Made by a program: the position numbers and the translations under genes
Part shown: in pieces, positions 27,081-60,737 of the stretch
Layout: every line of letters begins with the position of its first letter
How positions within the stretch are numbered: position 1 is the stretch's first letter
From: Lingula anatina
Taxonomy: Eukaryota; Animalia; Brachiopoda
Direction: 5' to 3'
DNA length: 64,000 nt
Assembly (NCBI GenBank): GCA_051362555.1
Contig: CM120640.1
Span: 12,462,001-12,526,000 of the forward strand
The notes under the pieces: generated by a model
The model's database searches: none
Told to the model about the DNA's origin: nothing
What the model saw: only the letters and a program-made list of their open reading frames with translations

Positions 27081-27347
27081 GGCACAGAAGAGGTGTAAGT
27101 AAACATACTGTTCAATGATAGTGTAATAATTTAGGTAATTAGCCTATCACACGGCGTTAACAGCACAAATAGACCTCACGGCCTGCGATCATTGCCACAG
27201 TCCTAGAGACCTAGGGAGTTAGAGACCCGATGGAGAGTCAGTGACGGAGTGAAAAAAAGAGCCTGAGATTTATTACGGATTTTTACCCGAGTAGGACTCT
27301 ACTCCTGGTGTTTATAAAGATTCATAGCCTATTTGGAAACAGTGACG

Positions 27348-27783
27348 ATGCATCCAGTTGTACCTCAAGCAAAGAGACCCAATGGTTTTAGCATAGACTC
27401 CTTGATGGGAAAGGAGGCGAGAGCCGCACACACGCCTACATCGTCCAGCGAGGCCGTCCTGTCAAACAGAGACGGCCTAGGACTCGGCAGCAGCTTTCAT
27501 CCCGTAACGTCATCCAGCACTTTACTCGGAATGAAAGGATTGTATGATCCCCAGGCCTTCCTCGCAGAGGCAGGGTTTGGATTAGGACATTTTGGAATGG
27601 CTAGCCACCCGGCGTTCGCGGGGGCTCTTCACCACGCGGCAGTGGCTGCAGCTGCCCTCCCCGCACACGCCTCTCCGGCCCCGCTTCACCCAATGCTCCT
27701 TGGCAATCCACAGCGAGAACCGTTCCCTTTCTATCCTTGGCTGATGTCTAGGCATGGCGGATATCTGGCACACAGATTTGCAG
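27348..27783 (+). CDS. Emx: Emx (empty spiracles) homeobox protein, exon 1
   Basis: MHPVVPQAKRPNGFSIDSLM (eh1 motif), Ala/His-rich stretch, FYPWL hexapeptide-like motif, HRF; phase-1 donor GCAG|GTGGGT. Confidence 0.92.
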
Positions 27784-30187
27784 GTGGGTTGGCTGGAAGG
27801 GATCCGGGCTCGAAAATTACCACAGTAATGTCGAATCACAATAGCTGTCCAGTTTCGTCAAAATTTTAATGTCTATATGATGACCAAAAATTGACTCTCT
27901 CGCCCGAAGATTAAAACAAATTATCAGCTAATAATCGGACGTGTTCTGTTTGAAAGCACGGGGTGAAATGTGAGTCAGTGCTGGTCAGGGCTTCCTAATG
28001 ATTAAAATATTCATACATCACCAAAGCAAAATGGGTTAACAAGTGAATGCTTAGTGTACACTTAGAAAAATTACGGGGAAAAAAGGCTGTCTCGATTATG
28101 ACTGTCACACTTAAGTCACTAATTGCCTTCGATCGACGGAGTATTATGCAGTTAATAGTCGCTTTTAGGCGCGGAATTGATGATAAAACAACTAAAATAA
28201 AATTTTATTACTGTCGAGATAAACCTCAGGCTGAGCTATGATCGCCACTTGGTGTTTGCCCCGGGCGCCAGCAGCACTGGTTGTAAAAATAAAATACAAA
28301 GGAAAACGAATGAGCCTTTTACTGCTTTGACAGACTGTTAAAAGACATTTTTACATCGCACAATTTTCATCGTCCACATAAAAAGCAAATATATTTTTGT
28401 GATTTGAGGTTTTTATCTAGATATTGAGACCCTCTTTGGTGACAATAAATTTTTGCTTCCTTTTGCCTTTTATATTAGAAGTCAAACCAAAAACTCTCCC
28501 AATTATTCGCGATTTTACTCTTGTTTACTAATTTGCCACTTTTTTCGAATCACGTCTCATATTCCTCATAGAATTATTTGAGCGCGAAGCCTCGATAGAA
28601 AGCAAAATGGTGCAATTAATATATCAAAAGAATAATGTTTATGAACAATTCTTTTGAATGTCTCCTGGTAATAAACGTATATTATTTTCATATGCTGCTG
28701 CATGTATTACCCAGTACCGCCTAGCCTTTTTTTCTAAAATTAAAGTCAATTTTACGTCACAAATGTCTTCTGGCACAGTGCAAACTGCGTTAAAAAATAA
28801 GATTTGTCACGTGAATAAGATGGTAATTTACTACAATTAACAGTGCAAGTGTAGTGACTAAAAGGGCATCAGATGGAAGCTTTAGTTCATGACTTTCAGT
28901 CATCGCAAGTAATTTACAAGAAACAGTCTGCCAGATTTGTTTCTCTTCTGCACATTATTAATATGAACTCGGAATTTGCACACTCTTATGACGATTTATA
29001 CGTAAGAGACGAAACCAGCAGAATATTTTACAAAATTCAAAATATTTAAAATAAGATAAAAAAAGGAATGGAATTGAACAAATGAAATAAAATAATGAAT
29101 AAAAGATGAAATCATACGCAAATTAGTTGCTGTCAAGCTTCATCTCAGCTTTCGTGCTGTTTATTAGTTTGTTATATTGTTTTGTTAAATAATTGCGAGG
29201 TGTCCCACAAGAAAATGAATATATTTTCCTTTGGAGATCTTTGAAAAAGGCGTCAATAATTTTCTTAAAATTCAATCATAATTTACGTAATGGTGATGCA
29301 ACAAAGACTGGGGAGGCACTGGGGAACTTGTATAACAGCGGGTAGATCCTAAGAACTAAGTTAATACAGTTTTATGCGCTGCTCACAAAAACGAGAGTCT
29401 TGAAGTCTTTATGCAATTGATTTCCAGCTTAGACTCGCTGACTTAGGAAAATCAGCGCTGACAATGCAGCTAGGCGCGTGTAAATATACCACAATTATTT
29501 ACGAACGTAATTGGATTACCATATTCCCACTAACTTGTTTATAGACAAACAAATCTAATAGCATTTGATAAATTAAATACACGCGTATTTCACTACTTGA
29601 ACAATACTTAAAGACTTTATTGACCACAATAGGAGTTGAAGAGTCTGTTGTTCTTCGATCTTCCCGCCTCTGAAGAAGATCATATTCATGGCCGAAAGCT
29701 GTCGAGTATACTCAGTGCCTCGATGCGGAAGTCAGTAATTTCAAAACGATAAATATATTAAATGCAATCAAGGCAGATTTCCTAATTTAATCAATTTTTG
29801 TTTGAGTACCTAAATTGAAGTAGCTGCTGAAAATGATCATCACCATAACAACAGAGTGTTATTTTTCTTTCTCCCTTTTTAAGTTCTATCCTCATAAAAT
29901 GTAGCCTTTTTATGCAAAAATTTTAATTTTACTCATGCTTAGTTAATGTAAGATAAGTATGTTTATTTCAGAATAAAAATATCACAAACATAAACAAGAT
30001 TCCATGTTAGGAAGAAATGCATGATGTATATCATTGAAATAAACTTAATTTTTCATAGTTGAAATATTCAGTATAAAAACACAAATACAAGAAGTGAATA
30101 TATAACTTTATCACGCACAAAACAACTCATTATACATCCCATTGTATTTAACTTCATTTTTATGGACAGATTTCCTGTACATTTTAG

Positions 30188-30357
30188 GTCCCGAGACAAG
30201 TTTACTACTTCAGCCCTTCCGCAAACCAAAGCGAATCCGGACAGCGTTTTCCCCGTCACAGCTTCTGCGACTTGAGCATGCTTTTGAAAAGAACCATTAC
30301 GTGGTGGGACAGGAGAGGAAAGAGCTGGCAGCTAGCCTAAATCTATCAGAAACACAG
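30188..30357 (+). CDS. Emx: Emx exon 2 (homeodomain helices 1-2)
   Basis: TTTTAG acceptor in phase 1; [48 protein letters not shown] is diagnostic of Emx; donor CAG|GTAAGT in phase 0. Confidence 0.97.
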
Positions 30358-33300
30358 GTAAGTACTAGTTTGTGTTTTTTACATGAAATAATAATAAAAT
30401 AAAAACATAAAGATGAAAAACAGCAGGCACATACTGTGGACAAAATTGACCGAGTTTTCTTTTTTAAATCCAATCCCCCATTTGACAACAAACGGATCTA
30501 AGTGAAAATAAAATAGGATATTTGTTTTGCTTTTAGATAAAAGTTTTAGTAGTTTTCAAAATGAATACTGAAAATAAACTGACTGACAGACACGAGTAAA
30601 ATTTAGACCGCATGAGGTCACCACTGTACGGCAATGGCTTGTCAGGGGTGCATATTTGGAGCTGTGTTTTCAGTAATTCAGCTAAACGTTTTTCGTAAGA
30701 AAACCTTAATATTAATATTGATAAAGATCCCACCCTTATGGGAAATACTTAATTTTAAAAAAATGCACAAAAAGTAACAAAGCACGAAATTAAAAACTTA
30801 TATGAATAATAACCCGCAAATGTGTCGGAATATGCTGTTCTTTAAGCTCTATCAGCCATGTTATTTGACGGCTATTGTTCAATTGCTAGCGGCAGGTGTT
30901 AAATGCTTCTTTGAAATTAACTTGCGCAGCTCTTTAATTTATCCATTAAAATCTTTTTAAACACAAACTACACTCAGTAGATTGGTTTATGGTCCACAAT
31001 AGACAACGTTAACTTTTCACAGCGCAGTAGTACATAGAGTAACTGAAACTAAAAAACGAAACACTGCGTAGATATAAACAGAAATGTTTTTCTCTATTTC
31101 ACCTTGGTTTTTATGTTAACTGGATTTTTAATGACATTTTACTTCAAGGTGTGGACAAACATTACCAAGGACCTTAAAATTTCAATCCAAGACATAAAAT
31201 TATCACGTAAACTACTAGATGAGTTAACTTTATCGAATATTTATTTCAATTTGGCAAAGATTATGCAGAGTTAAGATTATTCTGACAATAAACATTTTTA
31301 TCGCTGTATATTTTATAGTATCACAAAACATTATATAACCTCATACCATAACTAAGTTTATTCCAAATATTATAAAATCAAGAATGCACTTTTCAGTAAG
31401 CCGAAACGAGGAGGAAAATCAATAACTAAAATACAAAGCAAGGCTAATCAGCACTTAGAGTTGTGTGATAAAAGCGCTACTAATATTTTGATGACTACAA
31501 TCAGTGACACTGGGGTTTAATTCTCAGCTTTTATATTCTATTTGAGGGTGGCATGATCTAGGTTATTAACGTGTAATCACGCATCTATCAGAGAGCTCAC
31601 TGGTACTGTCAAGAACCTCTCCAGACTGGGTAATAGAGATAACACACCACTTTACGGATCCGCGCCGATTTATGGATATGCTGTTATGGATACATCGATA
31701 CAAAAGGCTGATCAAAAGCAACTTAGAGTAGAGAATTGACGATGATGTTATAGTAGCGCATCTTTTGTGTTGTTAGAGGGGCGTTTTTTTTTTTTTTTTT
31801 TTTTTTTTTTGAAAAACTCAATAAACCATATGCTATGAACCTAATGGTGTTCATTTCAGTTTGAGTTTTTTCATCATTTCTTTTCAATTGTACTACCCAT
31901 AAAATACATAATTGTTTGGATCTTTTGAAAACACTGCATTAGAATAATGATGGCAGCTTTCAATAAAATAAAGAGCCACTATTTTGATGTCAGTGGAGGA
32001 AAAATAATGCTTTTAACTAACGCTAATGTAGCCCGTAGAAATAATGATCAACTAAATAGTTGCCTGTACCGTTTGTTTTGTATAGCGAGGGTACAATATA
32101 AAACGATTGAGATAATTTAACGTTGAAACAAGGTATTTTTTGTGTGTTATTTTTTGTGATTTTTCTAATCAAGCATAAGCTTCAAGTTGGATTATTTCTT
32201 CTATTATAGAATTTCCAAAATTTAACTACTGATGTTTTCCAAATACTCATCTACCAAATATACCATTCATTAAATTATTATCATTTTATTACTATTCAAT
32301 TTGGGGAAATGTCGCCGGAAAGACGACATCTTGTCTCCAATCAAATCAGTTCTGTACTAGAGTAAAAAGAACAGAAACTGAAATATAGATGGGTGACCCG
32401 GACTAGAATTACCATGCAATTATTAGTTTTAATGAGATATGTGATTGTAAATTATGTAATATTATGTCGTATGCCGGCCCTAAACAGCTGTAGCTTTCGC
32501 AACAGCTGGATTTTTTTCCTGATGATGATGATTTAGCACGCAAAAATAGATTCTCATCTTAAGTGGAAGTCATGGGTACATTTGTCTCTTATTTTCCACA
32601 TTCAGTTTTGTGTCGTTGACTATTCAAATGGAGAACGGTTTAGCTTTGACTTACGGTTTCACTTTCGCAATTTGAATTTTTAAATAAAATCAGCCGACGT
32701 GTTATTTTGTTAAATACCTACTTCTTTTTCATTAGTCGATGTTTTTACTACTCTGTGAAATATGGTCATTATTTACTTGTTTTTTATCGCTGTATTTATT
32801 TCCCTATTCTCAAGAGTACTGGTAGAGCTCTTGATAGGCTTTCACCGCGAACAGCTCGTGAACATATTGCAGTCATCAACTATATTTGGTTTTAGTTTTC
32901 AAACAATGTATATTGTTATTTAGAAATCATTTAGCTTCTAGTGCGATGACAGTTGTCTGTATTCAATAGCGTTCTCACGATGGATGAACTCTATTTGGTT
33001 TCAAACTGTTTCAAGATACGAAGGGTAGCCTATACATGCAACGGCGTAATAACTCATCGGAATAAAAAGGACTGTTGTCATTAAAACATCACTGTTTTAA
33101 CGCGATAAAAGAGACGAATAAGCACGAAAGACAGGCCAAATACCCGCATCGCATGGTGTCGCCTATTTAACTATTCAATTCACTGTTGGTCTCTTCGTGT
33201 AATTGCAGCTGTTAGAATGTAGATTATATTTAAATACCGCTAAACAGACGACTTTCGAAATAAAGTGAGTGAATTGAAACGTTCATTTGCAAGTCCGAAC

Positions 33301-34634
33301 GTCTCCCATTAGCGTGTTGCGGCAGGAGTGTCGGTTACTTGCATTGACCGAATGACTTTTGTTTCAATCAACGGCAGATATTGAGATGACTTTGTTGATT
33401 CAATAACTGACAGACTGAGAAAAAAATGCAATGAACCACACGAACAACAAATTTATTCTGTACAAATCGGGACGTTTGAATTTTACGACAAACGGGTAAA
33501 TAAAACTCACATCAAAGTGATTTTATTTTTTTTCTTGGCATCAAAGGCAATTATTGCCGTTATATGAAGCTTAATAATACATATAGCAAACATACAGTGA
33601 GGGTACGACAAAATGTGTCCTAATTACTGAATAAAAAAGTGGTATTTAGCTGGCTCAGCAAGCCTGCATGCGTGCTGTTGCAACTGAATATTAGAAAACA
33701 TTCTACCGAACAGCATGGAATACGACAAATTAAAGCCACTGTTTTCAATCTTTTAAATTAAGATCTTACATTAAATATTTTAGTATAGTTTTCATTTTAA
33801 CCTGCCTTCCATTAAATGTTTCCGTTAAACGAAATCTTTTTGAATGAAAAATTAAAATAATGATGAGGCCTTACCTTTGCTATTGCCGTGTATTCAGTCT
33901 GCAAAGTCATGGTTTGGTATTTGCTGGGAAAGGAACGAAAAAAGGCAGAAATAAAAAAAGTTTTTTACCCATGATATGAAAACACAACCAAAAAACAAGC
34001 ATGGTGCATGTATTTGCGTTGAAATAGGGTTTGCTTTTTTTTTCTCACAGTAAGGAGACCGAATAAAACAAAGTGCCGCACGGTACATAGCCGCAGAGGC
34101 TTCACACGCCATTAGACTCGTCATTATGCAACTTCAAAAGAGAAACTCCGAATATTCCTCTTTCATCTGCTCCTTCATTACACCGTAATTTCAGTTTTAT
34201 GTCAATTAATACGCACCTGACATCTACTACTGAGGCTTGAGGCCAGGTAGTTTGATACCTTTAGTTATTTGGGACAACTTCCGAAGTTGTCTTGAATTCC
34301 TGTCCATTGTTTTTTAGCTTGTAATTGTCTTTCAGTGGAGTTGAACAATTCATTAATAGCCTGCGATCGAGATGAAGGGCATAGAGTTTTCAAAACTATT
34401 ATAGGCAATTAACCACGCGCCATTCTTGTTGTAAATCCTTACATTACATTTTTCTTTTTCATGATCCTGTCAGAATATTTAAATGTTTGAAATAAAAAAT
34501 GTGATATTTCTTATCTTATCTTTATTGTTAGGCTAGTCGTTAGTGTACATTATTTTACGAACAAACAAAGTTTGGGATAAATAATGATAGTTATTTGAAC
34601 TTGTATTAAGAGGGCCATTATTTTTTTCCTCTAG

Positions 34635-35012
34635 GTCAAAGTGTGGTTCCAGAACAGGCGCACAAAGTACAAACGTATGAAGGCGGAAGAAGGTGACACC
34701 GCCCCGTCTCCAGGCAAACCCCCTGGTGCTTCGGACGACGAAGATGAAGAGGAGGAAGAAGAGGAGGAGGAAGAGGACGGTGATGAGGAACATATTCTCC
34801 ATCAACAACAATTACAACAGCTACAGCAGCACCAGCAACGCACACTGGAACACAAAGCTAAAGCTAACCATGACACTCATAAAGACTTTAATGCCAAAAG
34901 ACCGAGCACAGACGACGATCGGCCGTCATCTCCCACCAAAAAACAAAAGATTTCACATGAACACCATCTGAATAAATGGAAAGCTGAGACGAATCAACTG
35001 AAAACTGTATGA
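34635..35012 (+). CDS. Emx: Emx exon 3 (helix 3 and C-terminus)
   Basis: TTTTTTTCCTCTAG acceptor; VKVWFQNRRTKYKR, acidic run, poly-Q/H, HHLNKWK motif, TGA. The joined CDS is 984 nt (327 aa). Confidence 0.96.
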   Translation, partial: VKVWFQNRRTKYKRMKAEEGDTAPSPGKPPGASDDEDEEEEEEEEEEDGDEEHILHQQQLQQLQQHQQRTLEHKAKANHDTHKDFNAKRPSTDDDRPSSPTKKQKISHEHHLNKWKAETNQLKTV

Positions 35013-43088: not shown

Positions 43089-44015
43089 TTAAAATTGACT
43101 TTCAAATCTTTCTATCCTTTCCATCATCTCTAGAGCACGCACACGCTGATTCAACTTTTCCACAACTTCGCCCATCGTTGGACGCTCGCGAGGGACCGCT
43201 GCCAGACAACCTTCCATCAGGTTGGTGACACCGAGAAGCTTTCCCAGCTTAGCACATTTCAGGATGAACCCGAAACTGTAAACGTCTGACTTGGTAGAAA
43301 ACTTCTGTCCCTCCCATATTTCTGGACCGTGTTGCGGAAATCGACGCTTGTACAGTTGCCTCAGACGGGGAATTACATAATACCTGTAAGCATGTTGGGA
43401 GTTAGAAAAGCTCACTTTTCCAACGTCCACAAGATACACATCTGGATCTTGCTGAATTGCACCGGTGAGAACTATGTTCTTAAGATGCAAATCATTGAAG
43501 CACAGTCCCAGTTTGTGCAGTTTAGCTAATTTAACTGCTAGTTTTTGCATCAATCTGGCCCAGTGGAGCATGTTGCGCACGTTCACAGGTTGTCTTCGTG
43601 AAGCTGTGATAGCGGAATAGAGAGTGATGGTTCTCTGCTTCATTGTGTCCCCTACAAACTGAACCACCGCACCTACATTCAGGTGTCCTCTCATCCATCC
43701 AAACCTTACATTGCTTAAGTCCACGAGCCCAAAGAATTTCGGCACTATTCCAGTTTCACTGAGAGCTGCCAGTATGCGTGTCTCCCTTACGGCGCATTCG
43801 AACTCTGTTGCCTTCTTGAATACCTTTATCGCCACAAGTGAACCGGATGTGTTTTCTTTTCCCAGAAACACCTTCCCAAACCTGCCTTCCCCCAGCAGGA
43901 GGCGCGTCGAGAAGAAGCCCCGTCGTAAAAAGTCGAGGCATGTCAACGGAAGAAACTTTGGAACATCTTCCACAACAAGACTGCGAGAGTCTCTTTCGTC
44001 TTTGATGGGAATGCT
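43089..44015 (-). CDS. Divergent Ser/Thr-type protein kinase, kinase-domain exon
   Basis: LGEGRFGKV glycine loop, VAIK, FNDLHLKN catalytic loop, DVG, GPE, SDVYSFG, ERP. No in-frame ATG precedes the domain, so it must be spliced. Acceptor ATACAG| at 44016 (phase 0), with an alternative TTACAG| at 44036 (phase 1). Confidence 0.85.
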   Translation of the reverse strand, partial: SIPIKDERDSRSLVVEDVPKFLPLTCLDFLRRGFFSTRLLLGEGRFGKVFLGKENTSGSLVAIKVFKKATEFECAVRETRILAALSETGIVPKFFGLVDLSNVRFGWMRGHLNVGAVVQFVGDTMKQRTITLYSAITASRRQPVNVRNMLHWARLMQKLAVKLAKLHKLGLCFNDLHLKNIVLTGAIQQDPDVYLVDVGKVSFSNSQHAYRYYVIPRLRQLYKRRFPQHGPEIWEGQKFSTKSDVYSFGFILKCAKLGKLLGVTNLMEGCLAAVPRERPTMGEVVEKLNQRVRALEMMERIERFESQF

Positions 44016-44306
44016 CTGTATTTGAGACACCAAATCTGTAATCACAATGCATACTTATCAGTAAAGGCGCAACATTACCACAAAACCTAGTAAATGTTTG
44101 TTGTGTTTGCGCGTTTGGGAGGTTGGGGGGGGGGTAAATTTGGTCCCTCTTTTTCCAACTTAAATCGTTTCATATTTCCATAAGCTTGTTGACAGATGAG
44201 TATTTGTACTTGAGAAATACTGCGTTTTTCATATATGTGCATGCGTTCGTGCGTGTATTTTATATAACACATATATGGTCTTAACTATAAGCTTGTTTCA
44301 ACTTAC

Positions 44307-48080: not shown

Positions 48081-50107
48081 CTTCGTGAGACATGCACAAC
48101 AGTCTAACGTAACGTCAATAAGAGAATAAATAACGATTGAATTATGAAAGGACGACTAAGAAAAGATGCATATTTCCATAAATCAAATAAAAAGGTGTAA
48201 GAAGAATTCTACAATACCTCATGATTTTCAAGCAATGCTTTTCAAGAGTCATTATTAGATAGCTTGTTTAAATCATATAATCATTTTCAATCACAAATCT
48301 CTTTTTGTTTTGACGCAAAAAAAATTAATCAGTCTCATGATTAGAGGAAGCTGATTTTGCACAAATATTTTGCCCGAGAGCTTTCATTAAAAATTTAACC
48401 ATGATCAGGTCTGTAACACAATGCCTATATTTCATTTACAACGCTCACTGAGTACACCTACATGTAGTTACAGTTGGGACGGATGGCCCGGCCGGGGAGA
48501 CGTCAATCCTGGACCTATATTCGAGAAAATCGTCATTTTTTCAATTATGGGTTATTTAGAAATAATAATTATTATTATTATGTTTTGATCAATGTTGGTA
48601 ATAATTTTATGATTTGCTAGTAAGTCATTCCATTTTGAACTTTTCTGATTTAAGTATAAATTGCATATTTGATTATTTTTGAATAGTTTTAAAAACTTCA
48701 TGTTACGACAGGCCTATTGTTCAGTTTTCCTTTTCAACATTAAGAAGTGCTACAGTCATTTCTGGTCCTTATTTCCCCAGTTCTAAGTACTTTTAATTGA
48801 ATGTGCTTCTTTCTAAAGAACAACAACTTATGCAGGAAGTGGCTCTACAACAACTTGGAAAATCAACTCGTGTTGTTTAGGTGGCTTGTCTTGGTTCTTT
48901 GTTTAGCATCGAAAGCTAGTATTTTGGTTGGTGTCCTACAGCTTTCGTATATTTTCCAAATTCCTTTGTTCTCTCTTAGCTTTTATATGGTTTAAGTGCA
49001 GCATTCACCAGTAATATAAAACGTCATTTTACAGGTAAGAGTTTCTTTTTCATTATGCACTGGAAGACGAGTGCTGAGTCTGTTTGTTTGTGAATTTTCT
49101 GGCATGTATCCTGTCCGCATTTAAAAATGTCCCCAAGTCGTACAGTATTTTCTGTGTCTATACATATCCCCCGAAGCTACTTATCATTCCCAATTTAGAC
49201 CTTTTAAAACGCAGAAACCCCTCAAATGAAAATACCCAATGTCGATATTTTGGTATTTCTGCACCCTATAAGTCTTTGATTTTCAATTTCAGTGTTTCTA
49301 ATTTCTAAATTACTCTGTATATTCTGTGGTGAATTAGAGCAATGTCTCCGCCATTTAAATAAAATAGTTTCGCAATTCATATACTAATTTTTTCAAAAAG
49401 CTTTTGTCAAAAACTTCATGCCCATTCAAATATTATGAGAGCTTCTAAAGGCTATTGCAAGGATGAATATTTGCTGTAATCCCATTATTCAGATAGCACT
49501 AAACGTTATTGTAAAAATATCAGAAAATTAGTAAGCATATTCTTATATTAATTCCAGTATTATGGGAATTATTTGCAAATAAATTTTTAATTAAAATGGT
49601 AGAAAACATGAAAATCCATGTGCAAGAACAAGTCAAGTACTGAATTGTGAAAAGGATAATTTTTTGTTTGTTTGTTTGTTAGGGGAAAGTTCAATTTTGC
49701 AAAAAAATCCAGAACATATACCTTTGATGTATACATTTATGAACAGTAGGGCAGTTTCTTAAAGTAAACAGTATTTTCCTCAGCTCTGTGCTACTAATAA
49801 TTTGGAAATATTGAAAAGTCCTTTGTCCACACTCTGCCATCACTTCAGGGACTGATTTCTGGATTGCTTGCATTTCAAAACTGTATCAAGATGGTTGACA
49901 GATGGCAAGCTTTGTCAGATGGTGAAAAATGAGATTGTTTTTGGCAACATAAATTTATGTCATTTAGAAATTAAAAATGATAAAAAAGTATTACCAAGAA
50001 TGAGTCCCTTATCTCTTATGCTTTAACCTCTTACCAGTTGCTTTCATAGCACATGCCCAAACTACAATACACATTTTTATTTAAGATTGGGAAAGAGTGG
50101 CATCAGA

Positions 50108-50216
50108 ATGTTGAAGATCTCTAGATTTGATCTAAAGTTGCCTGCAGAGCTTGTCCAGACTTGTGCTGCTCTGCGAGAAAGAGAGCTTGCCAAGTTTATA
50201 GCAACCAATAATGAAG
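50108..50216 (+). CDS. Multi-isoform TF-like gene, shared coding exon 1
   Basis: MLKISRFDLKLPAELVQTCAALRERELAKFIATNNE; donor AAG|GTAAAT in phase 1, matching the next exon. A probable 5'UTR donor CAG|GTAAGA lies at 49034/49035. Confidence 0.75.
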
Positions 50217-50572
50217 GTAAATAATTTAGTAAGCTTATTTTTATTTTTATTATTATTCCAAACTACTTCTACTAAAAACCTTTGCAGTTATCAATTTTTG
50301 TAAATGCTTTTAAGTTCAAGGATGTCTTTTATTACTGAAAAAATTTCATTATAAGTAGTTTAACGCCAAACAAAGTTTTTTTAATGGACCATAGGTTAAT
50401 TGGTTGAAAATTTTGACATCATTGCCTGTTGAAACTGTTCCTCTTCTTTCTTTTCTCTTTGGAGTATCTGGACAAAATTTCATACAAGAATGAAGTTTTT
50501 GTGTAATGACATTTCTTCATAATAAGTTGTTTTTTATAATGCTTATATCAAGCTATGATAATGTTGTTTCAG

Positions 50573-51297
50573 GTGAATTCCAGCATACCATAGAAGTGAA
50601 GAGTGAAAAGGAGCACTTTGTTAACTTTGAACTATCCAATTTGGAGATAACATTTAAAGATGGCAGATTTGTGGCCCAGATTGCCCAGGTTCTTAAAGTC
50701 TTTCAGGCGCCAGAACAGGAATCTCAGCAGCAACAGCCTGCACCATCACAACAACAGCCGAGTAATGTTGGAACAGTAACCTCACGTGGTAGTTTTGAAA
50801 AACAATCGCCAAATGTCACTCATTCAAATGAGAGACTTGTGACTCCAACATCTGGTCCAGATGCCGTGAACTTGTTCAGAAACACACAGTATAGAAATTC
50901 AAAGGAAATCTCAGCATCTCAAAATGTTTCTCAGACTACCAGCGTGCAACCAAGACAGCTGCCAAATACAGGTGTCAACTCAAACACAGCTGAAGAAGAG
51001 GATGATGACATAATTGTAGTGAAAGATGAAGATATGATATCAAGGAGGTCGAAAAATGTAGCTGAAGTCACAATTGAGCCCTCTGTTGCAGGAGAGCCCA
51101 GCTCCTCTCAGCCTTCGCAGATATACCCTTATAGCTTATCACAAGTGCATTTGAATGCACCATCCACCATCACAAGTATGTCAAACACAGAACAGTTAGT
51201 TCAACCTTCAACTTCTCAAGTGGGTTCTAACGTGCCACCTCCCCCAACCACACCAGGGCAAATGTTTCTTCACAGAAAGATGGCAAGGATGCAGCAG
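50573..51297 (+). CDS. Multi-isoform TF-like gene, shared coding exon 2 (end of N-terminal domain plus Q/S/P-rich linker)
   Basis: TTTCAG acceptor in phase 1; long open frame (ORF 50506-51333); strong phase-0 donor CAG|GTAAGA. Confidence 0.85.
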
Positions 51298-51332
51298 GTA
51301 AGAGTTATCATTTGTATTTTAGTTATATTTTG

Positions 51333-51358
51333 ACAGGGTTCGACATAAAACTTTTGAT
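51333..51358 (+). promoter_or_regulatory. Stem I, 5' arm (long-range intronic RNA pairing with 52961-52987)
   Basis: ACAGGGTTCGACATAAAACTTTTGAT pairs at all 26 positions (3 G:U, one bulge on the partner) with GTCAAAAGTTTTGATGTCGAGCCTTGT. Confidence 0.75.
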
Positions 51359-52033
51359 TGTTCATTGAGTGAGAATATATTTCATAATAGTAAATGATGA
51401 TATTTCAGGAATATTTGAAGTTATAAAGGAATAATGTGGTAAATGGAAAAGGTGTACATGAACGAGTTGGCCTTTCTTCCACACTATAAGGTGCCAAGTT
51501 AGTCATTCAAACCTGTTACTGTGTAGTTGTAATTTAATTATACAAACAAATTGTTATCCACTACAAGAGCTTGGTAGTGACTCTTTTAAGAGAGATTGAC
51601 TGCTTAAGGTAGAAGATTTTGTCACTGGGGTTTGTTCTTAGCATCCTTTAATGCTGACAATATATGGGCCTAGGCCATAGTTCAGCTCAAGACAAAATCT
51701 TTTTATGAGAGAGTCTCACAGAAATCATCCCCCTTGTGCCTTGCTTCTCCCCGGGCTTTGGATTATGATATTTGACAGTTGTTTCTTCAGAGATAAGACA
51801 TGCTTGAAGTTCTACAGAATTATTCTGAAGCTAGAAATAATAAGTACATATTTACTAGTATATGGCCAACATTTTATTTTTAAAATGGTGTCATTAAAAA
51901 AAAGAAATTTTAAATCTGGCAAAATTAGGATATTAACTGTTGATATACATAACACTAAGATTGTTAACTTAAATGAAAGATCAAAAACTCAGCTCTCATT
52001 ATGAGTAAATTTGCCACTTCACTTCTTTAACAG

Positions 52034-52531
52034 GTACATCATAGTCCTGTCAGGCCTTTAGATTATGCACGAGCAGAGAAGGTTAAGCAGTTGAAAGCCA
52101 AGATTTTAGAAAAGAAAGTCAAACATCATTCAGATATGATGCTAGGTCAGAAGTTCGCCCCCAGGACACTGCAGGGTAGTTCAGCTGGAAGCCCAAGACC
52201 TCTGGTCAATCCTCTTGACCATCTCACTACCAAACACAAGCGCAATTTGAGGTCTTTGTTAACTTATGGGTTACAAGAGCTTAGCGCCTCTTGTGTGGCA
52301 CAGAGACATCTTATGCCACCTATGCAAACACCTGGCTGCAAAAACAAGTACAAGACTGAGTCGGCAGTTGAATATCTGATGAAGGTGTCTGAGCTGGGAT
52401 TTGGTACTGTAGAGACGAGAGGGCGGGTCAAAGTTTTCAAGAAACGTCCCTTTGATGAGCTTAGTCAAAGCAGCAAAGAACTACTTGCTAGAATATTTGT
52501 GGAAGAATCTGCCTATAAGAAAACAAATTGA
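52034..52531 (+). CDS. Alternative terminal exon A: non-zinc-finger module, putative winged-helix-like domain
   Basis: TTTAACAG acceptor in phase 0, open to TGA. The segment ESAVEYLMKVSELGFGTVETRGRVKVFKK has a helix-G-x-G-hairpin pattern; the fold assignment is inference. Confidence 0.75.
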   Translation, partial: VHHSPVRPLDYARAEKVKQLKAKILEKKVKHHSDMMLGQKFAPRTLQGSSAGSPRPLVNPLDHLTTKHKRNLRSLLTYGLQELSASCVAQRHLMPPMQTPGCKNKYKTESAVEYLMKVSELGFGTVETRGRVKVFKKRPFDELSQSSKELLARIFVEESAYKKTN

Positions 52532-52960
52532 CTGATATGAAGGGAAGGGCTTTCTTCTGTATAGTGTTAAGCACATTATAGAATAGGCTAGACACTTTTT
52601 TTAGTGGGATTTATCTCATTTATTGGAAAGACTGAATACCTTTAATTTTAAAAAAAACTTTATATTTTTTAAATAATGATTTTTAAAACTAAATGTTAAA
52701 ACATATTATTTTTTGTTTTTCCCATAAAGTTTTATATTTCTATTTGCTTTTTTAGTAAAAATTGAGCAATGGTTAGGGGTATACGCATACAACTGAATGT
52801 TAAATAATGATTTTATATTCAAGTAATTCATTTCTTGTTGAGCAAAAGAAGACATCCAAAATGAAATTGCTGTTCAGATACTTTTGGGAGACAAAAAGAA
52901 AAAGGTGGACAAAGTAAAACAGTGTAAAAATTTTGTCATTGCCATCTGTAAAAACTGACT

Positions 52961-52987
52961 GTCAAAAGTTTTGATGTCGAGCCTTGT
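52961..52987 (+). promoter_or_regulatory. Stem I, 3' arm
   Basis: Complementary to 51333-51358; lies downstream of terminal exon A. Confidence 0.75.
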
Positions 52988-53470
52988 ATTAGTATGCTTA
53001 TAGTATAGTAAGGTATACAACATTGTTAATTTGTTAAATGTTAGTCTTGTTGTACATCACATAAAGGGATAGCAACTGTTCATTTTGGCCAATTTTCCCA
53101 TGCTTACCAATGGTTAATGAATCCATTTCTACATTCAAAGTTAGTCAATGTTTTTTTTTTCTAAAAAGTTTGTTTTTTTAGCCATCTATGGAGGTCAAGT
53201 GGTCAGATGGCAAGCACAGATTTCAGGTTTATTGCTAAAACTGCCATTTTTGTGGTAAAATAGAATATGTTATATTTCTATGAGTTGTTTACGATGTGTT
53301 TATTTTGAAATATAGATTTCATACGAGGAGTTGTTATCCCTTTATGTTAATATACTAGTATCTCAAGGGGGACAATTTTATTAAATTATTATTTTTTAGT
53401 ATATTACCACTAATATACTTACAACTGTATTATATAATGTTTAATATATATTCTATAGTCAGTTCCTTTG

Positions 53471-53497
53471 TTTGCTTTCTTATTCTCACCAGTGTTG
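53471..53497 (+). promoter_or_regulatory. Putative RNA docking site TTTGCTTTCTTATTCTCACCAGTGTTG
   Basis: Its reverse complement CAACACTGGTGAGAATAAGAAAGCAAA is closely matched once upstream of each of ZF modules 2, 3, 4 and 5. Confidence 0.8.
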
Positions 53498-53695
53498 AGT
53501 CCTCCAAAATTTTTGACTGAAAAATGAAAACAGCCTTTCACAGACTGGCCAAGAAGGAAATCCATAGTATTGTGCATACATACATATTTATGACAAAAAA
53601 TGACATGCTTGTGGTAAAAATGGTTTAAGCCTGCATATTTTGTATGGGGGCAAATCTGTTATGACATAGAGCCTTTTCTGTTTTATTTTTTAAAG

Positions 53696-54238
53696 AAAGG
53701 AAGAAACTTAGTTATTTCACCAAGGAGAGTGACAAATACATTGTCAAAACTACAGCGTGTGACGCCAAGTGTTGCAGCAGAGAAAGGAAGGAGTAAATAC
53801 CAGTGTGGCACGTGTGGTAGAACATTTCTACACAGTTTGTCTCTGACAGCTCACCAAAAAGAACATTTGTGTGACAAGGGTAGTTCCAGGCAAGTCCAGT
53901 GCAAGGTGTGCAATCAAAGTTTTACATCTGGAAAAGGACTGACTAAACACTTGAACTTGTACCACAAGGATAGTTTATGCTGTAATGCTTGCAATGCCAC
54001 CTTTACCACACAGGTTAGCTTGCAACGGCATATGCGAGTTGCTCATAAATCTAAAATGTATTCGTGTGAGATCTGCAACAAGAGCTTTGGCTACAAGATT
54101 TCGTTACATAGGCATTTTGAGGCAAAGCATAATTCAAATCCGGCATACATGTGCTCCTTTTGCAACAAATCATTTGCCTCTCCATACATGGTTAAAGCTC
54201 ATATCAAAAGTTTACACAAACTGGATCAGCAGACTTAA
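53696..54238 (+). CDS. Alternative terminal exon ZF1 (5 C2H2 fingers)
   Basis: Polypyrimidine tract and TTTAAAG acceptor in phase 0 (KGRNLVISPRR...); five CxxC...HxxxH/HxxxxH motifs; own stop codon. Confidence 0.88.
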   Translation, partial: KGRNLVISPRRVTNTLSKLQRVTPSVAAEKGRSKYQCGTCGRTFLHSLSLTAHQKEHLCDKGSSRQVQCKVCNQSFTSGKGLTKHLNLYHKDSLCCNACNATFTTQVSLQRHMRVAHKSKMYSCEICNKSFGYKISLHRHFEAKHNSNPAYMCSFCNKSFASPYMVKAHIKSLHKLDQQT

Positions 54239-54414
54239 AATGTGTATCTGGAAAAAGGAGGAACACTGATCATTAATGAAAATATTTATCCATGTAATTA
54301 ATCTGTACACGGTTATTTAACATTCCATTTTATGTTAGGTTTTATAACTCGACAAGATTTGCAAAGAGTTCAATGAAAAAATGAGGGGAGTTTTTCTACA
54401 GGTTAGTGTTCTGG

Positions 54415-54443
54415 CAACCACTCGTGAGAATAAGCAAGGAAAT
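54415..54443 (+). promoter_or_regulatory. Selector 2 (complementary to the docking site)
   Basis: CAACCACTCGTGAGAATAAGCAAGGAAAT, with an exact GTGAGAATAAG core, about 230 nt before the ZF2 acceptor. Confidence 0.7.
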
Positions 54444-54674
54444 GGAGCAAAGCAGTTAACTGAGAAAATTTTAAAACACCTTAAAGAGAGGTGAATGACA
54501 ATGAAACACATCCCTTACTAAAGGAAATATATTTTCATAACATTTTATTTTGTTATATGGGATACTAATGACAAACATGGCATGACATCAGGAACCCGAT
54601 GGGGCAGCTGAATGTGAAGGTTTAAGTCAAGTTGTGAATATTTTGACAAGCACTTTTGCTTTCTTTTCTTCAAG

Positions 54675-55073
54675 AGAACTGTCAGTCACCCCCTGATGAG
54701 GTCCAGGAAGAAACATCTACAGAGAGAAACAAAATCTTCCTGTCAGTACTGTGATATGTCATTTTCAAGTAGTTTTGCACTGAGGGCACACTTACGAGTT
54801 CATAAAGGGAATTTATATGAGTGTCTCCTGTGTAACAAACAGTTTGTGTATAAACAGTCCTTGCTTAGGCATGTAGAACGCAATCACCAAAGCAACCAGG
54901 AATGTGTTTGTTGTATCTGTGGGAATGTGCTGTCTTCTCCAGATGTGATAAAGGATCACATAGAAACAGTCCACAGAAAAGAGGCTGTCAGATGTAATGT
55001 CTGCCAAGTATACTTCACCAGATCAACTTTGAGGATTCATATGGCCATGCAGCACAAAGAATTTTCATCATGA
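54675..55073 (+). CDS. Alternative terminal exon ZF2 (4 C2H2 fingers)
   Basis: TTTTCTTCAAG acceptor in phase 0 (RTVSHPLMRSRKKH...); four fingers; stop codon; ATTAAA at 55080. Confidence 0.88.
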   Translation, partial: RTVSHPLMRSRKKHLQRETKSSCQYCDMSFSSSFALRAHLRVHKGNLYECLLCNKQFVYKQSLLRHVERNHQSNQECVCCICGNVLSSPDVIKDHIETVHRKEAVRCNVCQVYFTRSTLRIHMAMQHKEFSS

Positions 55074-55475
55074 TTTCACATTAAATGCTTAAATGTAAAT
55101 GGTGCATGAGGGTTGAGGTACCAACATGGAACCTTCGAAAATCATGGCCCTATATTTCTTGCTGCTATTTTCTAATGATAGTTGATGTTGTTGACAGTAT
55201 ATTGCAGTATGTACCTGAAACAAAAATATATTTACATATTACAAGGTAAGACTTAGAAAAGACATATTACAAGATATCTACTGCTACATTTTGGCAGTGA
55301 GGAACTTAATGTGGTGGAGTGGGCAGCATACAAAGATTTAGTAACTTTTATCTACAGTTTTTTAAGCGTAACTTTGTAATGTAAATAGCTATCAGTGTAG
55401 ATGAACTTTTATCAGCCTGTAGAAAAATTTATATATGTGTTAAAAAAATTCCTCCATGTGGCAAGGTTTCCAAAT

Positions 55476-55503
55476 GACACTGGTGAGAAGATGAAAGAAA
55501 ACA
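55476..55503 (+). promoter_or_regulatory. Selector 3
   Basis: GACACTGGTGAGAAGATGAAAGAAAACA is 24/28 identical to the reverse complement of 53469-53496, about 250 nt before the ZF3 acceptor. Confidence 0.78.
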
Positions 55504-55749
55504 GTAAATTAATTTATACAAAATCTTTAAATGAAAAGAAAGTTGTATAGTTTGTGTGTATTAGTTAGCTATATAAAAAAACTGGAAAAGTAATTATCAT
55601 TTCTGAACCAGAAAAATTATTTAAATATATCAAAATGCTCTGGATAGCCAGTTTATAAAATTTGTATAATTATACTCAATGCGGAATCTCCATTATTTTG
55701 CTGGTAGCTTTCTAACACATGAAGACATATTTATTATTCCCTTAACAAG

Positions 55750-56307
55750 GGCAAACATACCCACCCAAAGTTGAGAAGCCCATGGCCTGGAGATTCGCCA
55801 GCACGCATGAGACTTCATGGGATGCACTTTTGTCTGGTGTGTGGAAAGGGGTTCCAAAGTGACATCTTGTTACAGCGTCACAAGAAGATACACAGTGCTG
55901 GAAAGGATTTTGTCTGCACCATCTGCAACAAGGCATTTGTGTACAAGCTATCACTGCAAAGACACACTGACGCCTGTCATAACAGTAACCCTGCGTACAC
56001 ATGCACCATATGCAAAGCTGTCAAATACAGCAAGTGCAACATGCGCCGTCACATTGAAGGAGTCCATAAAATGAAGGCTATCCAATGCCAAGGTTGTCAT
56101 GGCTATTTCACTGAAGATGGATTGAGGGATCATAAATGTAGTGGTGATAAAAATGATAGAAAAAGTTTAACAGGAAACTTGATGGCAGAGAGAGCTGATC
56201 ATTTGACAGGTGAAGGCTTAGTGACTCCAGACGTGATTCATGGCCCTATTATTGTAGACATATCACAGGCCCCTGTGAATGAAAATGTAGATTTACCAAG
56301 TCCTTAG
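55750..56307 (+). CDS. Alternative terminal exon ZF3 (3 C2H2 fingers plus 1 C2HC-like finger)
   Basis: TTCCCTTAACAAG acceptor in phase 0 (GKHTHPKLRSP...); fingers are paralogous to those of ZF1/2/4; own stop codon. Confidence 0.88.
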   Translation, partial: GKHTHPKLRSPWPGDSPARMRLHGMHFCLVCGKGFQSDILLQRHKKIHSAGKDFVCTICNKAFVYKLSLQRHTDACHNSNPAYTCTICKAVKYSKCNMRRHIEGVHKMKAIQCQGCHGYFTEDGLRDHKCSGDKNDRKSLTGNLMAERADHLTGEGLVTPDVIHGPIIVDISQAPVNENVDLPSP

Positions 56308-56723
56308 ACAGAAGAGTCACTTGCTCAACCAATTACTAGATTTGGAGGAATATTGGTAGGCCATAATATAACTGTTCTTTGGGCATTCTCACTTCCTGCC
56401 ATTTTGACAAGAAATAACCCTTTGTGACTAAACATGATAGCTATAAATACAAGTTTAATTAATAACATGCATAGGCCACTTGCCTTCGAATAACTAAATT
56501 TCATGTTAGGGGAGAAAAAATAATTACCTTGAGCTTCAGATTCTCACAATCTTGTCACATGAAAGAGAATTGGCCTGCTTGGAATTTAGACCAGCCCTTT
56601 TTCCTGTATGACAAGAATTTCAGAACAAGGGTTTGTAAAACTGCCTCCAACAATTGAAACCTTGAATTTTTCTAATTTTGTATGTTTTTCTGATAATAAT
56701 TGCAATTGGCAAAGTGATGCATT

Positions 56724-56750
56724 AACACTGGTGAGAATGAATGCAGAAAA
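56724..56750 (+). promoter_or_regulatory. Selector 4
   Basis: AACACTGGTGAGAAT is a 15/15 complement of the docking site, followed by GAATGCAGAAAA; about 125 nt before the ZF4 acceptor. Confidence 0.78.
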
Positions 56751-56873
56751 AAAATCAATTTTCTTTTAAAAGCATGTTTACTTCATATTTTATTACATTA
56801 AAAATAAAAAAGATAAATATTTGTGGAATGGAGCCTTTTTTCTTTCAATCAATTTTCTACATTATTTCATAAG

Positions 56874-57293
56874 GAAAAGAAGAAATTCGCCTTACAGAAA
56901 TATCCTACTGGCAAGAAAACCAGTTTTACCATGTCTTATCTTGGCATGCAATACTCGTGCAAATCCTGTGGAAAGATCTTCCAAAAGCACACTTCTCTGC
57001 TAGAACATATGAAAATACACAAAGGCAAACTACCCACTTGTGACATTTGTAACAAATCTTTTGTGTATAAACAGTCCTTGGAGAGACACATACAAGCATA
57101 CCACAAGAGCAATCCTGCCTATCTGTGCTCCATTTGTGGCACTCTGAAGTTCAGTAAAACTTCTAATCTACGGAGACACATTGAGGCTGTCCATAAGATA
57201 ACACCTATACGATGTGATATCTGTCATGGATACTATACTGAAAGTAGCAAGGTGGAACATGATCTGATACACCTGAAGTTGTTGCAACAGTGA
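56874..57293 (+). CDS. Alternative terminal exon ZF4 (4 C2H2 fingers)
   Basis: TTATTTCATAAG acceptor in phase 0 (EKKKFALQKYP...); four fingers; own stop codon. Confidence 0.88.
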   Translation, partial: EKKKFALQKYPTGKKTSFTMSYLGMQYSCKSCGKIFQKHTSLLEHMKIHKGKLPTCDICNKSFVYKQSLERHIQAYHKSNPAYLCSICGTLKFSKTSNLRRHIEAVHKITPIRCDICHGYYTESSKVEHDLIHLKLLQQ

Positions 57294-57756
57294 AAAAGTG
57301 GATTGCAATTATTGGATATATTAAATGTTGTTTGTTATGTAAATTATATTTATTTACTAGTTTCATCAATAAGGAATTTCATGTCATCCTCCGCCCCCTG
57401 TCCCTACCCAAACCTGTCATGGAGTTATGTTTGTGGGTCTGCTCATGTTAGAAAATTTATATTGTAGTTTTATGGCATCACCATATCTTACAGTTCTGCT
57501 TAGGCTTGGTTAATTCTTATATATTTTGTAGCAAAGAAACATAAATATAAAAGTTCACCAAAACACTTACATGGAATACTTGAAATAAAAGTAAATCTTG
57601 TGTAATATAATAAAAGCATGGACAACATGATACAAGCATGTACAGCAGCTGTTTCTGGTGTGCACAATACTGAACATGGGGAAACATCAGTCTTCGCATG
57701 CTATTTATGTAGAACAAAATTCCATAAGAATGATCAAATTTAAGTTTTATTGAAAT

Positions 57757-57784
57757 ACATTAGGTGAGAATGTGAAAGCAAATA
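57757..57784 (+). promoter_or_regulatory. Selector 5
   Basis: ACATTAGGTGAGAATGTGAAAGCAAATA pairs with the docking site using G:U wobbles, one bulge and one mismatch; about 480 nt before the ZF5a acceptor. Confidence 0.75.
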
Positions 57785-58265
57785 CCTCAATATTTTATCA
57801 TGTATTATGTAGATAGTAGGTTGGTAGATTTTTACACTCTATTTAGATTGTGTATACAGCTCTTACAATGATTATTATAGAAATAAAAATACAATATAAT
57901 CTGAAATTAGACATGTTTTGATTTGCAAACTAAATATCTTGTCACATTATTGGTCTCAAACAAATATTTTCCTTTTGTTTCACAGCTATTCATATATTAA
58001 CAGCTTAAAGCTTTTTACAGGCTCTCATTTTGTTTGATTAGTTTATTCTAAATAGACTTCAACAAAAGTATCCTCTATTTATGATAAATTGCTTATTTTG
58101 ACAGGCCTAAAATATGATTGTCTCTAACAGCTCCATCTGCCAGTTAATCTTTTATTAGAATTGAGGGAAGAAAAGGCATTACTTTCACACGGTAATGCTT
58201 TTTTGTCTGAAATATAATACGTTTGAGAGAAATTTGAAATTTATGTTGTGTAATATTTCCTAAAG

Positions 58266-58321
58266 GGACATCGAGGCCAGCCAACCCAGTTATGGCGTTC
58301 ACAGACTTCAGGCAATGGAAT
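58266..58321 (+). CDS. Alternative terminal module ZF5, exon a (56 nt)
   Basis: TTTCCTAAAG acceptor in phase 0; GHRGQPTQLWRSQTSGNG; GTAAGT donor in phase 2, exactly matching the phase of exon b. Confidence 0.72.
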
Positions 58322-58503
58322 GTAAGTACTCAAAATTGCATAAAGATGACAAAAACAGCTTTAGAAATTAGTTCATGACTTAAGCATTGGCAGTTTATTA
58401 CTTGTTTTAACTGACATTTGGTTAGCTTGATTAGCAGATTCTGTTGTTGTAAAAATCAAAATACAGTCTACAAAATGGTTTGAATTTGACTTGTCATGTT
58501 TAG

Positions 58504-59134
58504 GACCTCTGGGACCAGGAGATATATTGCTGAAAAACATGCATTGCCAAATGTCTCCAATGTTGCTGCTGTAAAGGAAAGCAGAGGATTGCCTTACAAA
58601 ATGGGTCAAAAACCTGTTACCGAGAATACTCTGTCAGGGGTCAATAGGAGTCAGTTTTTGTGCACCAAATGTGGTCAAAGTTACAAGACGGTGAAAGATC
58701 TACAGCAACACCAAGCGCAGTGCACACAGTTGTGGTCCCCGAGTTCAAAGAAAAATTTCAACTGCAATGTTTGTGGGAAACAATTTCCAGGAATGCAGAA
58801 CTTGAGACAACATCTTTTGAAGCATAAAACTCCCAAGTGTATTTGTCAGCTGTGTGGCAGGGCTTTCAAATGGAAAGGGTCACTTAAAAGACATATGCAC
58901 ACATGTCAAAGAGCACAAAAAGTGCCAGGATTTGTCCCAGTTATTAGAACATTTTCACTATCAGACCCTTCAAACACGACTGTTTCTGGATTGGAAACTT
59001 CAAATGTAACACTTTCAAGGCCCACACCTTTGGGATTACCAAGACCAGGGGTTAAAAGTTCAGATCTGACTGAAGAGAAGTCTGCCAACACTGCAGACCA
59101 CTCAGTCAATCCTAATCCTTGTTATTTAACATGA
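58504..59134 (+). CDS. Alternative terminal module ZF5, exon b (3 fingers: C2HC, C2H2, C2HC)
   Basis: GTTTAG acceptor in phase 2; FLCTKC..HQAQC, FNCNVC..HLLKH, CQLC..HMHTC; S/T-rich tail; stop codon. Confidence 0.85.
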
Positions 59135-60630: not shown

Positions 60631-60737
60631 CTCTCATATGCTGGCACAGTGTTTGGTGCATCTGTATAGCTTTCCACCAGGCATCGTAGCACAGTCAACA
60701 GATGCAGTGGTTTCCTCATGGCCTGCCAGTAGGGGTC
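60631..60737 (-). CDS. NUP155: Nup155 exon
   Basis: DPYWQAMRKPLHLLTVLRCLVESYTDAPNTVPAYER; GT-AG boundaries with consistent phases. Confidence 0.9.

Follow-up and report, generated by a model that had tools for sequence, protein, structure and literature searches.

Complementarity points to an RNA-pairing architecture at five alternative zinc-finger ends with a shared AAG acceptor in a Lingula anatina gene

In the lola gene, a common N-terminal domain and linker are spliced to many alternative DNA-binding 3' exons. A similar layout characterizes mod(mdg4), in which a common N-terminal domain and linker are followed by one of numerous 3' exons whose ends bind DNA, and which is trans-spliced without need for complementarity (PMC13490949, in excerpt). 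Docking-site control of 3' variable exons has already been demonstrated in flies, where Drosophila PGRP-LC, CG42235 and pip join 5' exons that all transcripts share to one of several 3' cassettes in tandem, with one docking site complementary to selectors ahead of the cassettes (PMC6191721, in excerpt). The PGRP-LC docking site is found at the boundary of the common exon, the first cassette has a selector, the arrangement was tested by mutation, and 3' site strength contributes in part, being described as 'partial, rather than determining' (PMC6191721, in excerpt). In Dscam1 exon 6, the docking site lies upstream, every variant has its selector and weak splice sites, and the first exon outside the loop is activated by proximity; the first variant wins upon loss of the docking site. 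The 48 variants are internal, being followed by a common exon, and the effective distance is under 200 nt (PMC3535345 and PMC8791459, in excerpt). According to the published model, these weak sites depend on pairing, and once strengthened they lose their dependence on both the control region and the pairing (PMC3535345, in excerpt). A review called the breadth of docking-site control an open question (PMC9013439, in excerpt).

The gene described here lies in the window, a 64,000-nucleotide stretch of Lingula anatina DNA, and consists of a shared front part that can be followed by any of six alternative last exons, five of which are zinc-finger (ZF) arrays. The gene's exons and candidate pairing elements given below are on the + strand. 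Common exon 2 (50086..50216, ATG at 50108, AAG acceptor) was joined to the preceding exon by 14 reads (49034 to 50086), and common exon 3 (50573..51297, CAG acceptor) extends to the donor that all ends share; together they encode 278 aa, comprising an unnamed 82-aa domain and a low-complexity linker. Five RefSeq isoforms, the annotation models X1, X2, X3, X5, and X6, have these 278 aa in common and differ thereafter, each module being closed by its own stop. Junction reads, given as listed joints, came from 4 of nine same-species RNA runs. Donor 51297 was joined to the alternative last exon A in 13 reads from three runs and to ZF1 in 8 reads with 5 different starts, all from RNA run X1, which also had the deepest coverage of the common exon; these two mutually exclusive ends use one splice site. 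The modules ZF1 (53693..54238, 180 aa, a C2H2 array by Pfam, isoform X3), ZF2 (54672..55073, 132 aa, Pfam match, isoform X6), ZF3 (55747..56307, 185 aa, Pfam match, isoform X2), and ZF4 (56871..57293, 139 aa, isoform X5), given here with their AAG acceptors, are paralogous last exons, the others having 34-39% identity to ZF1. ZF5 shows 19% identity and a different exon structure, with a 56-nt mini-exon, ZF5a (58263..58321 with its AAG acceptor), and a C2H2 array by Pfam in ZF5b (58501..59134 with its TAG acceptor), both in isoform X1. The predicted joins coincided exactly with those of the RefSeq isoforms in all five cases. No joint from donor 51297 to ZF2, ZF3, ZF4, or ZF5 was among those listed for the four runs, and these joins are shown by annotation only; the ZF4 acceptor was joined in 2 reads (run X7) to a donor in the ZF3 3' UTR.

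Judged by complementarity, the cluster appears to have an RNA-pairing architecture, which is the stronger result of this analysis. A candidate docking site of 27 nt (53469..53495) lies 201 nt before the ZF1 acceptor and 2.2 kb from the donor. Across the + strand of the 64-kb window, its four best partners (-34.5 to -33.1 kcal/mol) fall one before each of ZF2, ZF3, ZF4, and ZF5; the fifth (-32.0) is also located before ZF3, and the best beyond the cluster reach -28.0 to -28.7. Among the 27 docking positions, the putative ZF2 selector (54419..54442) would pair with 21 by Watson-Crick and 2 by GU bonds, the ZF3 selector (55477..55503) with 24 by Watson-Crick bonds, the ZF4 selector (56725..56750) with 19 and 2, and the ZF5 selector (57757..57784) with 19 and 3. 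The selectors have the core GTGAGAA in common and differ in their remaining sequence, and their overlap on one docking site implies mutually exclusive pairing; the distance from selector to acceptor varies from 124 to 482 nt. In a hub test covering all candidate docks in 51298-53695, the observed value was 21.1 against a null maximum of 14.3 (0/200 shuffles), and the gene region contained 11 strong duplexes compared with at most 6 in 86 shuffles. ZF1 has no selector, its best duplex reaching -14.9 kcal/mol versus -33 to -35 for the others, so that selectors accompany four of the five zinc-finger modules rather than every variant; none was found for exon A. A metagenome scan with the docking sequence returned 0 matches, and one with the family alignment returned 87 pattern matches, 0 of them confirmed. 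Among the literature matches listed, none dealt with this gene, its family, or such pairing in either Lingula or other lophotrochozoans, or with a docking arrangement in any brachiopod.

AAG accounts for near 5-6% of human acceptors. The order of acceptor efficiency is CAG > TAG > AAG > GAG (PMC11802449 and PMC2018619, in excerpt). A sequence-only reading of this locus had claimed an AAG acceptor for all five zinc-finger modules, and the sequence, all five RefSeq joins, and the ZF1 reads bear this out, the acceptors being TAAAG before 53696, TCAAG before 54675, ACAAG before 55750, ATAAG before 56874, and TAAAG before 58266 (first exon bases). As that reading had also stated, the acceptors of exon A and ZF5b are CAG (before 52034) and TAG (before 58504), the divergent ZF5 carries AAG as well (58266, the join of RefSeq X1), and so does a Nup155 exon at 60737. 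The Nup155 exon lies on the minus strand and is supported by 22 reads. What the reading had overlooked is that exon 2, a constitutive exon of the gene itself, uses TTAAG (before 50086); AAG is not peculiar to the zinc-finger cluster, because exon 2 and Nup155 use it too. Reads covered the junction of ZF1 and, with another donor, the acceptor of ZF4, while those of ZF2, ZF3, and ZF5 are given by RefSeq. Each AAG site is in frame with donor 51297, and at ZF1-4 its pyrimidine tract is the richest among nearby AGs. In-frame YAGs occur downstream near every module, yet it is the AAG that both the joins in RefSeq and the reads of ZF1 take.

The contrast between 5/5 zinc-finger acceptors and 2/12 other acceptors in the window gave a Fisher p of 0.003 for a pattern that was spotted post hoc, and counting ZF1-4 once (2/2 versus 2/12) gave p=0.066. 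AAG was present at 2/6 read-supported acceptors outside the zinc-finger set, and the 95% interval of its local rate was 2-48%. An A precedes AG in 32-38% of cases, which for an unselected -3 position corresponds to about 0.3-1% for five. The description of these acceptors as uniformly weak was not upheld, as their tracts contain 11-16 pyrimidines of 17 versus 10-16 at other acceptors; any weakness would lie in the A at -3, present in 5/5, the tracts being equal to those elsewhere. Nor did the proposal that each acceptor is silent unless activated by pairing agree with the data: two exons that appear to be constitutive are spliced at AAG, ZF1 is well used without a selector, and the ZF4 site accepted a nearby UTR donor in 2 reads. 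The inference of RNA pairing itself is retained to the extent that the candidate docking site and four selectors exist, and is given up as regards uniform weakness and silence without pairing. It had been cautioned that AAG might be inherited among ZF1-4; the paralogy is real, but recent inheritance is a poor explanation because the sequences on either side of the acceptors can no longer be aligned from one module to another (1/10 upstream pairs above z 3).

The product of exon A (coding part 52034..52531, 165 aa) resembles, as a relative, the C-terminal part of two proteins with Pfam PF13148. Comparison gave no support for homology to the P0015/P0027 end, and we do not claim a winged helix, the predicted fold having a mean pLDDT of 46.9 and no structural match. 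The canonical AATAAA is absent after exon A, ZF1, and ZF2. A candidate stem bridging exon A has its 5' arm at 51324..51363, 27 nt past the shared donor, and its 3' arm at 52956..52995; the duplex is predicted at -39.5 kcal/mol, and its arms are reciprocal best partners in the 64 kb. It was matched by 12/1000 shuffles (4/86 in the region-wide test) and is absent from a global 2.4-kb fold, where the 3' arm pairs with 51753-51784. On this suggestive evidence, the stem bracketing exon A is a weaker candidate than the docking pairing. Another putative long-range stem would have one arm at 50435..50484, pairing with 52860-52912 at -44.9 kcal/mol; this arm may be a repeat remnant. For an unstranded MITE-like repeat with terminal inverted repeats (53059..53347), to which foreign reads map, the predicted structure is a separate hairpin with a 22-bp helix (P 0.99).

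The docking complementarity, together with the Dscam1 and PGRP-LC precedents, makes competing pairing the best model, and we consider it probable that docking-selector competition chooses among the five zinc-finger ends, with the shared AAG acting as a modest, selected weakening rather than a switch. Under this model, exon A, with its CAG and its position nearest the donor, would be the default end, and in transcripts that read past it, looping-out by the stem that begins shortly behind the donor may remove it. With the docking site unpaired, ZF1 would win by proximity as the nearest acceptor; pairing with a given selector would loop out the earlier modules and place the corresponding module at the former position of ZF1. 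The effective donor-acceptor distance would thereby lie within 337-460 nt at ZF1-4 and reach 695 nt at ZF5, compared with 2.4-7.0 kb along the linear transcript, and the suboptimal -3 base could keep acceptors from winning merely through earlier transcription. The gene would thus likely yield several transcription factors that share their N-terminal domain and vary in their DNA-binding ends, comparable to insect lola and mod(mdg4). Against this model stand the 2.2-kb gap between docking site and donor, which differs from both Dscam1 exon 6 and PGRP-LC, the missing ZF1 selector, the spread of selector-to-acceptor distances, and, for the AAG part, its use at exon 2 and Nup155 and the ordinary tracts; the gap would be closed by the bridging stem, for which the evidence is only suggestive. 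In further contrast to PGRP-LC, the Lingula docking site lies past a first, unrelated last exon, the first zinc-finger module lacks a selector, DNA-binding domains are the cargo, and the pairing is predicted from sequence. Compared with Dscam1 exon 6, the variants are last exons, five in number, and the distances are 337-695 nt; the uniform -3 base of the zinc-finger ends is not described for Dscam1 in the excerpts of PMC3535345 and PMC8791459. A more far-reaching reading, which we regard as doubtful, would be a two-tier RNA switch in which the stem removes exon A and the docking site picks the zinc-finger end, with AAG marking pairing-gated acceptors family-wide, possibly in trans, in a brachiopod lola/mod(mdg4)-like family that evolved independently on a non-BTB domain.

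The acceptor data bear on the possibility that the pairing is real and the AAG incidental, a founder-module trait tolerated behind a good tract with an unselected A at -3. The presence of AAG at other acceptors of the window, including read-supported ones, the paralogy of ZF1-4 with its loss of significance when they are counted once, and the strong tracts of ZF1 and ZF2 all fit this explanation, which we hold to be possible, though on balance unlikely. Because the acceptor flanks have diverged beyond alignment, drift would be expected at position -3 as well in the absence of selection. Random AGs show A there just 32-38% of the time, and the divergent, differently structured ZF5 has AAG too. 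The clean split between CAG at exon A and AAG at all five zinc-finger ends could also suggest a positive code, through which a dedicated factor or U2AF35 variant switches the gene from A to the zinc-finger set, and the ZF1 joint was found in run X1 alone whereas that of A appeared in three runs. However, the counts are tiny, run X1 is also deepest on the common exon, and constitutive exon 2 carries AAG, which leaves such a code extremely doubtful.

The complementarity, in turn, could be a harmless leftover of tandem duplication of an old hairpin arm, with competition between splicing and polyadenylation picking the end, as copying one arm of a stem automatically yields competing partners (PMC9013439, in excerpt). 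The retention of 19-24 Watson-Crick pairs of 27 by selectors in otherwise unalignable surroundings, and the presence of a selector before the divergent ZF5, render this improbable. Trans-splicing would invoke a separate transcript starting past exon A, with arms at 52860-52995 pairing with the introns that flank common exon 3; past exon A there are indeed two neighboring arms whose complements lie in intron 2 and intron 3, in crossing order. Variable exons of the mod(mdg4) type have their own promoters, some on the opposite strand, and RNA pairing reportedly aids trans-splicing of sDscam. All mod(mdg4) isoforms are made in trans, but complementarity is not the driver there (PMC13490949, in excerpt). 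Cis splicing suffices in Lingula because all modules lie on the + strand in order; the short reads, which have little power to reveal internal starts and are masked by a repeat in this area, showed no such start, and both stems are individually weak in statistics; we therefore consider a trans origin quite improbable.

Compared with the fly cases, competing pairing at this five-module brachiopod gene would extend the candidate set to spiralians and points to a convergent design in which a common head receives swappable DNA-binding tails on a different N-terminal domain. This architecture carries most of the weight, and the AAG alone is of modest interest; its uniformity offers a single-base test of selected acceptor weakness, for which paralogous Lingula loci, among them LOC106156073, LOC106150702, LOC106157998, and those encoding XP_013402758 and XP_013406330, are natural replicates. 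As in lola and mod(mdg4), common exons are spliced to many alternative last exons that, judging from family matches, probably bind DNA; lola and mod(mdg4) carry a BTB domain, whereas no Pfam family, BTB included, matched the common exons or the common part of 14 paralog isoforms. A BTB identity, suggested by RefSeq names containing 'BTB', was rejected for lack of any BTB domain match. The 82-aa domain, folded with the sequence of paralog P0019, was modeled as one helix and four strands at low confidence (mean pLDDT 43.7); the model had no PDB structure match and the domain no Atlas match, and in a PDB sequence search the best 60 of 171 matches were all to zinc fingers. The alignments were made without rows P0025 and P0026 (unrelated cluster members) and P0016 (a repeat match). 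The domain was found in Lingula records and three further records, and further Lingula genes combine it with exchangeable ends of DNA-binding type, the paralog ends being C2H2, Myb/SANT, and HTH-like and those at this locus C2H2 arrays.

The alternative last exons of the zinc-finger gene, exon A and the zinc-finger modules ZF1 to ZF5, are served by a single donor at 51297 on the forward strand, and AAG precedes all five zinc-finger modules (5/5 in the sequence). This feature, first described in the sequence-only reading, is real, as are the CAG acceptor of exon A, the TAG acceptor of the internal exon ZF5b, and, on the minus strand, a single AAG beside five CAG acceptors at what we take to be the Nup155 3' end. 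The proposed junctions held up as well: five RefSeq Lingula anatina isoforms, retrieved as proteins identical across the 70 residues searched, join MQQ to KGRN, RTVS, GKHT, EKKK, and GHRG, exactly the frames defined by AAG, although these gene models fix the junction position but not the -3 base (the A of AAG) in that assembly. Because 4 of the 278 common residues differ from those in the window, the isoforms derive from another haplotype or assembly.

Junction reads came from 4 of the 9 listed same-species runs, with 6-25% of each run sampled. Reads supported at least the forward-strand joints 49034-50086 (14 reads at the exon 2 acceptor), 50216-50573, 51297-52034 into exon A (13 reads), and 51297-53696 into ZF1 (8 reads with 5 starts, RNA run X1). 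AAG is also the acceptor (50083-50086) of this gene's constitutive exon 2, which had previously been overlooked. Stranded X1 depth covered all six ends, at about 1-8 across coding bins. The ZF4 acceptor (56874) was reached by two reads of another RNA run, X7, from a donor in the ZF3 3' UTR at 56355, 48 nt past the stop, a reading that presumes three substitutions within the six letters preceding the donor; such splicing would yield a ZF3 mRNA in which the ZF4 exon serves as UTR.

AAG occurred in 2 of 12 other acceptors in the window (95% interval of this background share, 2-48%), comprising exon 2 (AAG), exon 3 (CAG), exon A, ZF5b, two TAG acceptors of a presumably Emx-like homeobox gene, and the six Nup155 sites; six of these 12 were supported by reads, one by RefSeq, and five by sequence. 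The difference from 5/5 was significant (Fisher p = 0.003), and weakened to p = 0.066 when ZF1-4 were taken as a single event. Against plain inheritance of AAG among paralogs, the acceptor flanks could not be aligned between modules (100 nt upstream, one of 10 pairs at z 3.6; 60 nt downstream, none above 2.2), and protein identity to ZF1 was 34-39% for ZF2-4 and 19% for ZF5. Drift is an unlikely source of 5/5 AAG, because the share of random AGs with A at -3 is 32-38% (first 48 kb of the window), though there are only five sites and the pattern was noticed post hoc. The pattern is probably non-random, and we lean slightly toward AAG having been selected as an acceptor feature. The further claim that these acceptors are uniformly weak did not hold, because pyrimidine counts at -20 to -4 (14, 16, 13, 13, and 11 for ZF1-5) fell within the 10-16 of other acceptors.

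A repeat search revealed that a candidate docking site at 53469-53495 is complementary to sequence before ZF2, ZF3, and ZF5, and in a duplex scan of the whole forward strand of the window its four top-ranked partners lay one each before ZF2, ZF3, ZF4, and ZF5. These putative selectors form 19-24 Watson-Crick pairs across 27 positions, share the core GTGAGAA, and precede their acceptors by 124-482 nt. With any docking window within 51298-53695 allowed, the hub test gave 21.1, whereas 200 dinucleotide shuffles reached at most 14.3. No selector was found for ZF1, located 201 nt past the docking site. The docking-selector helices would form and steer the choice of last exon, and we consider it likely that this pairing is functional. 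Past the ZF1 stop, X1 sense depth at 54214-54664, a region including the ZF2 selector, was 10 versus 3 on ZF1 coding sequence, consistent with either 3' UTR sequence or an independent transcript.

The idea that weak acceptors depend on RNA pairing corresponds, in general form, to a published model. In Dscam1, activation is limited to the exon nearest outside the loop, and strengthening weak sites abolishes dependence (PMC3535345); deleting the docking site lets the first variant dominate (PMC8791459). For PGRP-LC, site strength acts jointly with pairing and position and contributes only partly (PMC6191721). The uniform -3 base is a local twist of the Lingula cluster on this model; AAG by itself is not a silencing switch; it belongs to a credible candidate competing-pairing cluster. 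Among the papers listed by literature searches, none reported such a cluster for the brachiopod lineage or for this gene family.

A stem around exon A, pairing 51324-51363 (just past the donor) with 52956-52995, was predicted at -39.5 kcal/mol, with the arms being reciprocal best partners in 64 kb (next-best, -26 and -28 kcal/mol); it was matched in 12 of 1000 shuffles, and 4 of 86 region-wide shuffles contained a best duplex as strong. The stem was missing from the global 2.4-kb fold, in which its 3' arm pairs with 51753-51784, likewise upstream of exon A. Support for a possible first tier of choice is moderate. Between the 3' arm and the docking site, a MITE-like multicopy element (53059-53347) is predicted to fold out; it has terminal inverted repeats of 19-22 nt, and many reads from other copies map there. 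If the helices form, modeled donor-acceptor distances for ZF1-5 would be 440, 446, 460, 337, and 695 nt, set against the 736 nt of exon A and linear module distances of 2.4-7.0 kb. Trans-splicing is a possible reading, because a third candidate stem (50435-50484 with 52860-52912) crosses the first. Beside this inverted similarity, 50407-50484 and 52860-52957 share 71% direct-repeat similarity, suggesting repeat remnants common to intron 2 and the region after exon A.

A HMMER query with common exon 3 yielded 10 representatives. Besides this gene, they comprised five further proteins from Lingula, three unnamed records, and one match to a repeat. These Lingula proteins correspond to five annotated loci, and a sixth, partial locus turned up within the clusters; haplotype duplication may account for some of the loci. 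The first 82 residues, an unnamed N-terminal domain (50108-50216 and 50573-50710, forward strand) seen in proteins P0011-P0024 and P0027, are 59-85% identical between loci, several of which have isoforms with differing ends (C2H2, Myb/SANT, HTH-like, or basic without a Pfam match). The domain defines a gene family in Lingula whose members have alternative C-termini. The design, a common head with variable ends, resembles that of lola and mod(mdg4), but the shared domain matched neither BTB nor any other Pfam family, and by the BTB test the Lingula genes fall outside that group. In one paralog (P0020-P0023), isoform pairs show a two-residue difference (VK) where the common and variable parts meet, which suggests a pair of donors spaced by 6 nt. 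The exon A domain (52034-52531) shares 56-58% identity across about 95 residues with the C-terminal region of two longer PF13148 proteins, one from Lineus longissimus. Elsewhere in the window, the Emx-like gene (27318-35009) has three exons, the last with acidic and glutamine runs, and an intronless minus-strand frame of 321 codons (43092-44054) with putative protein-kinase-like motifs lies divergent from the zinc-finger gene.
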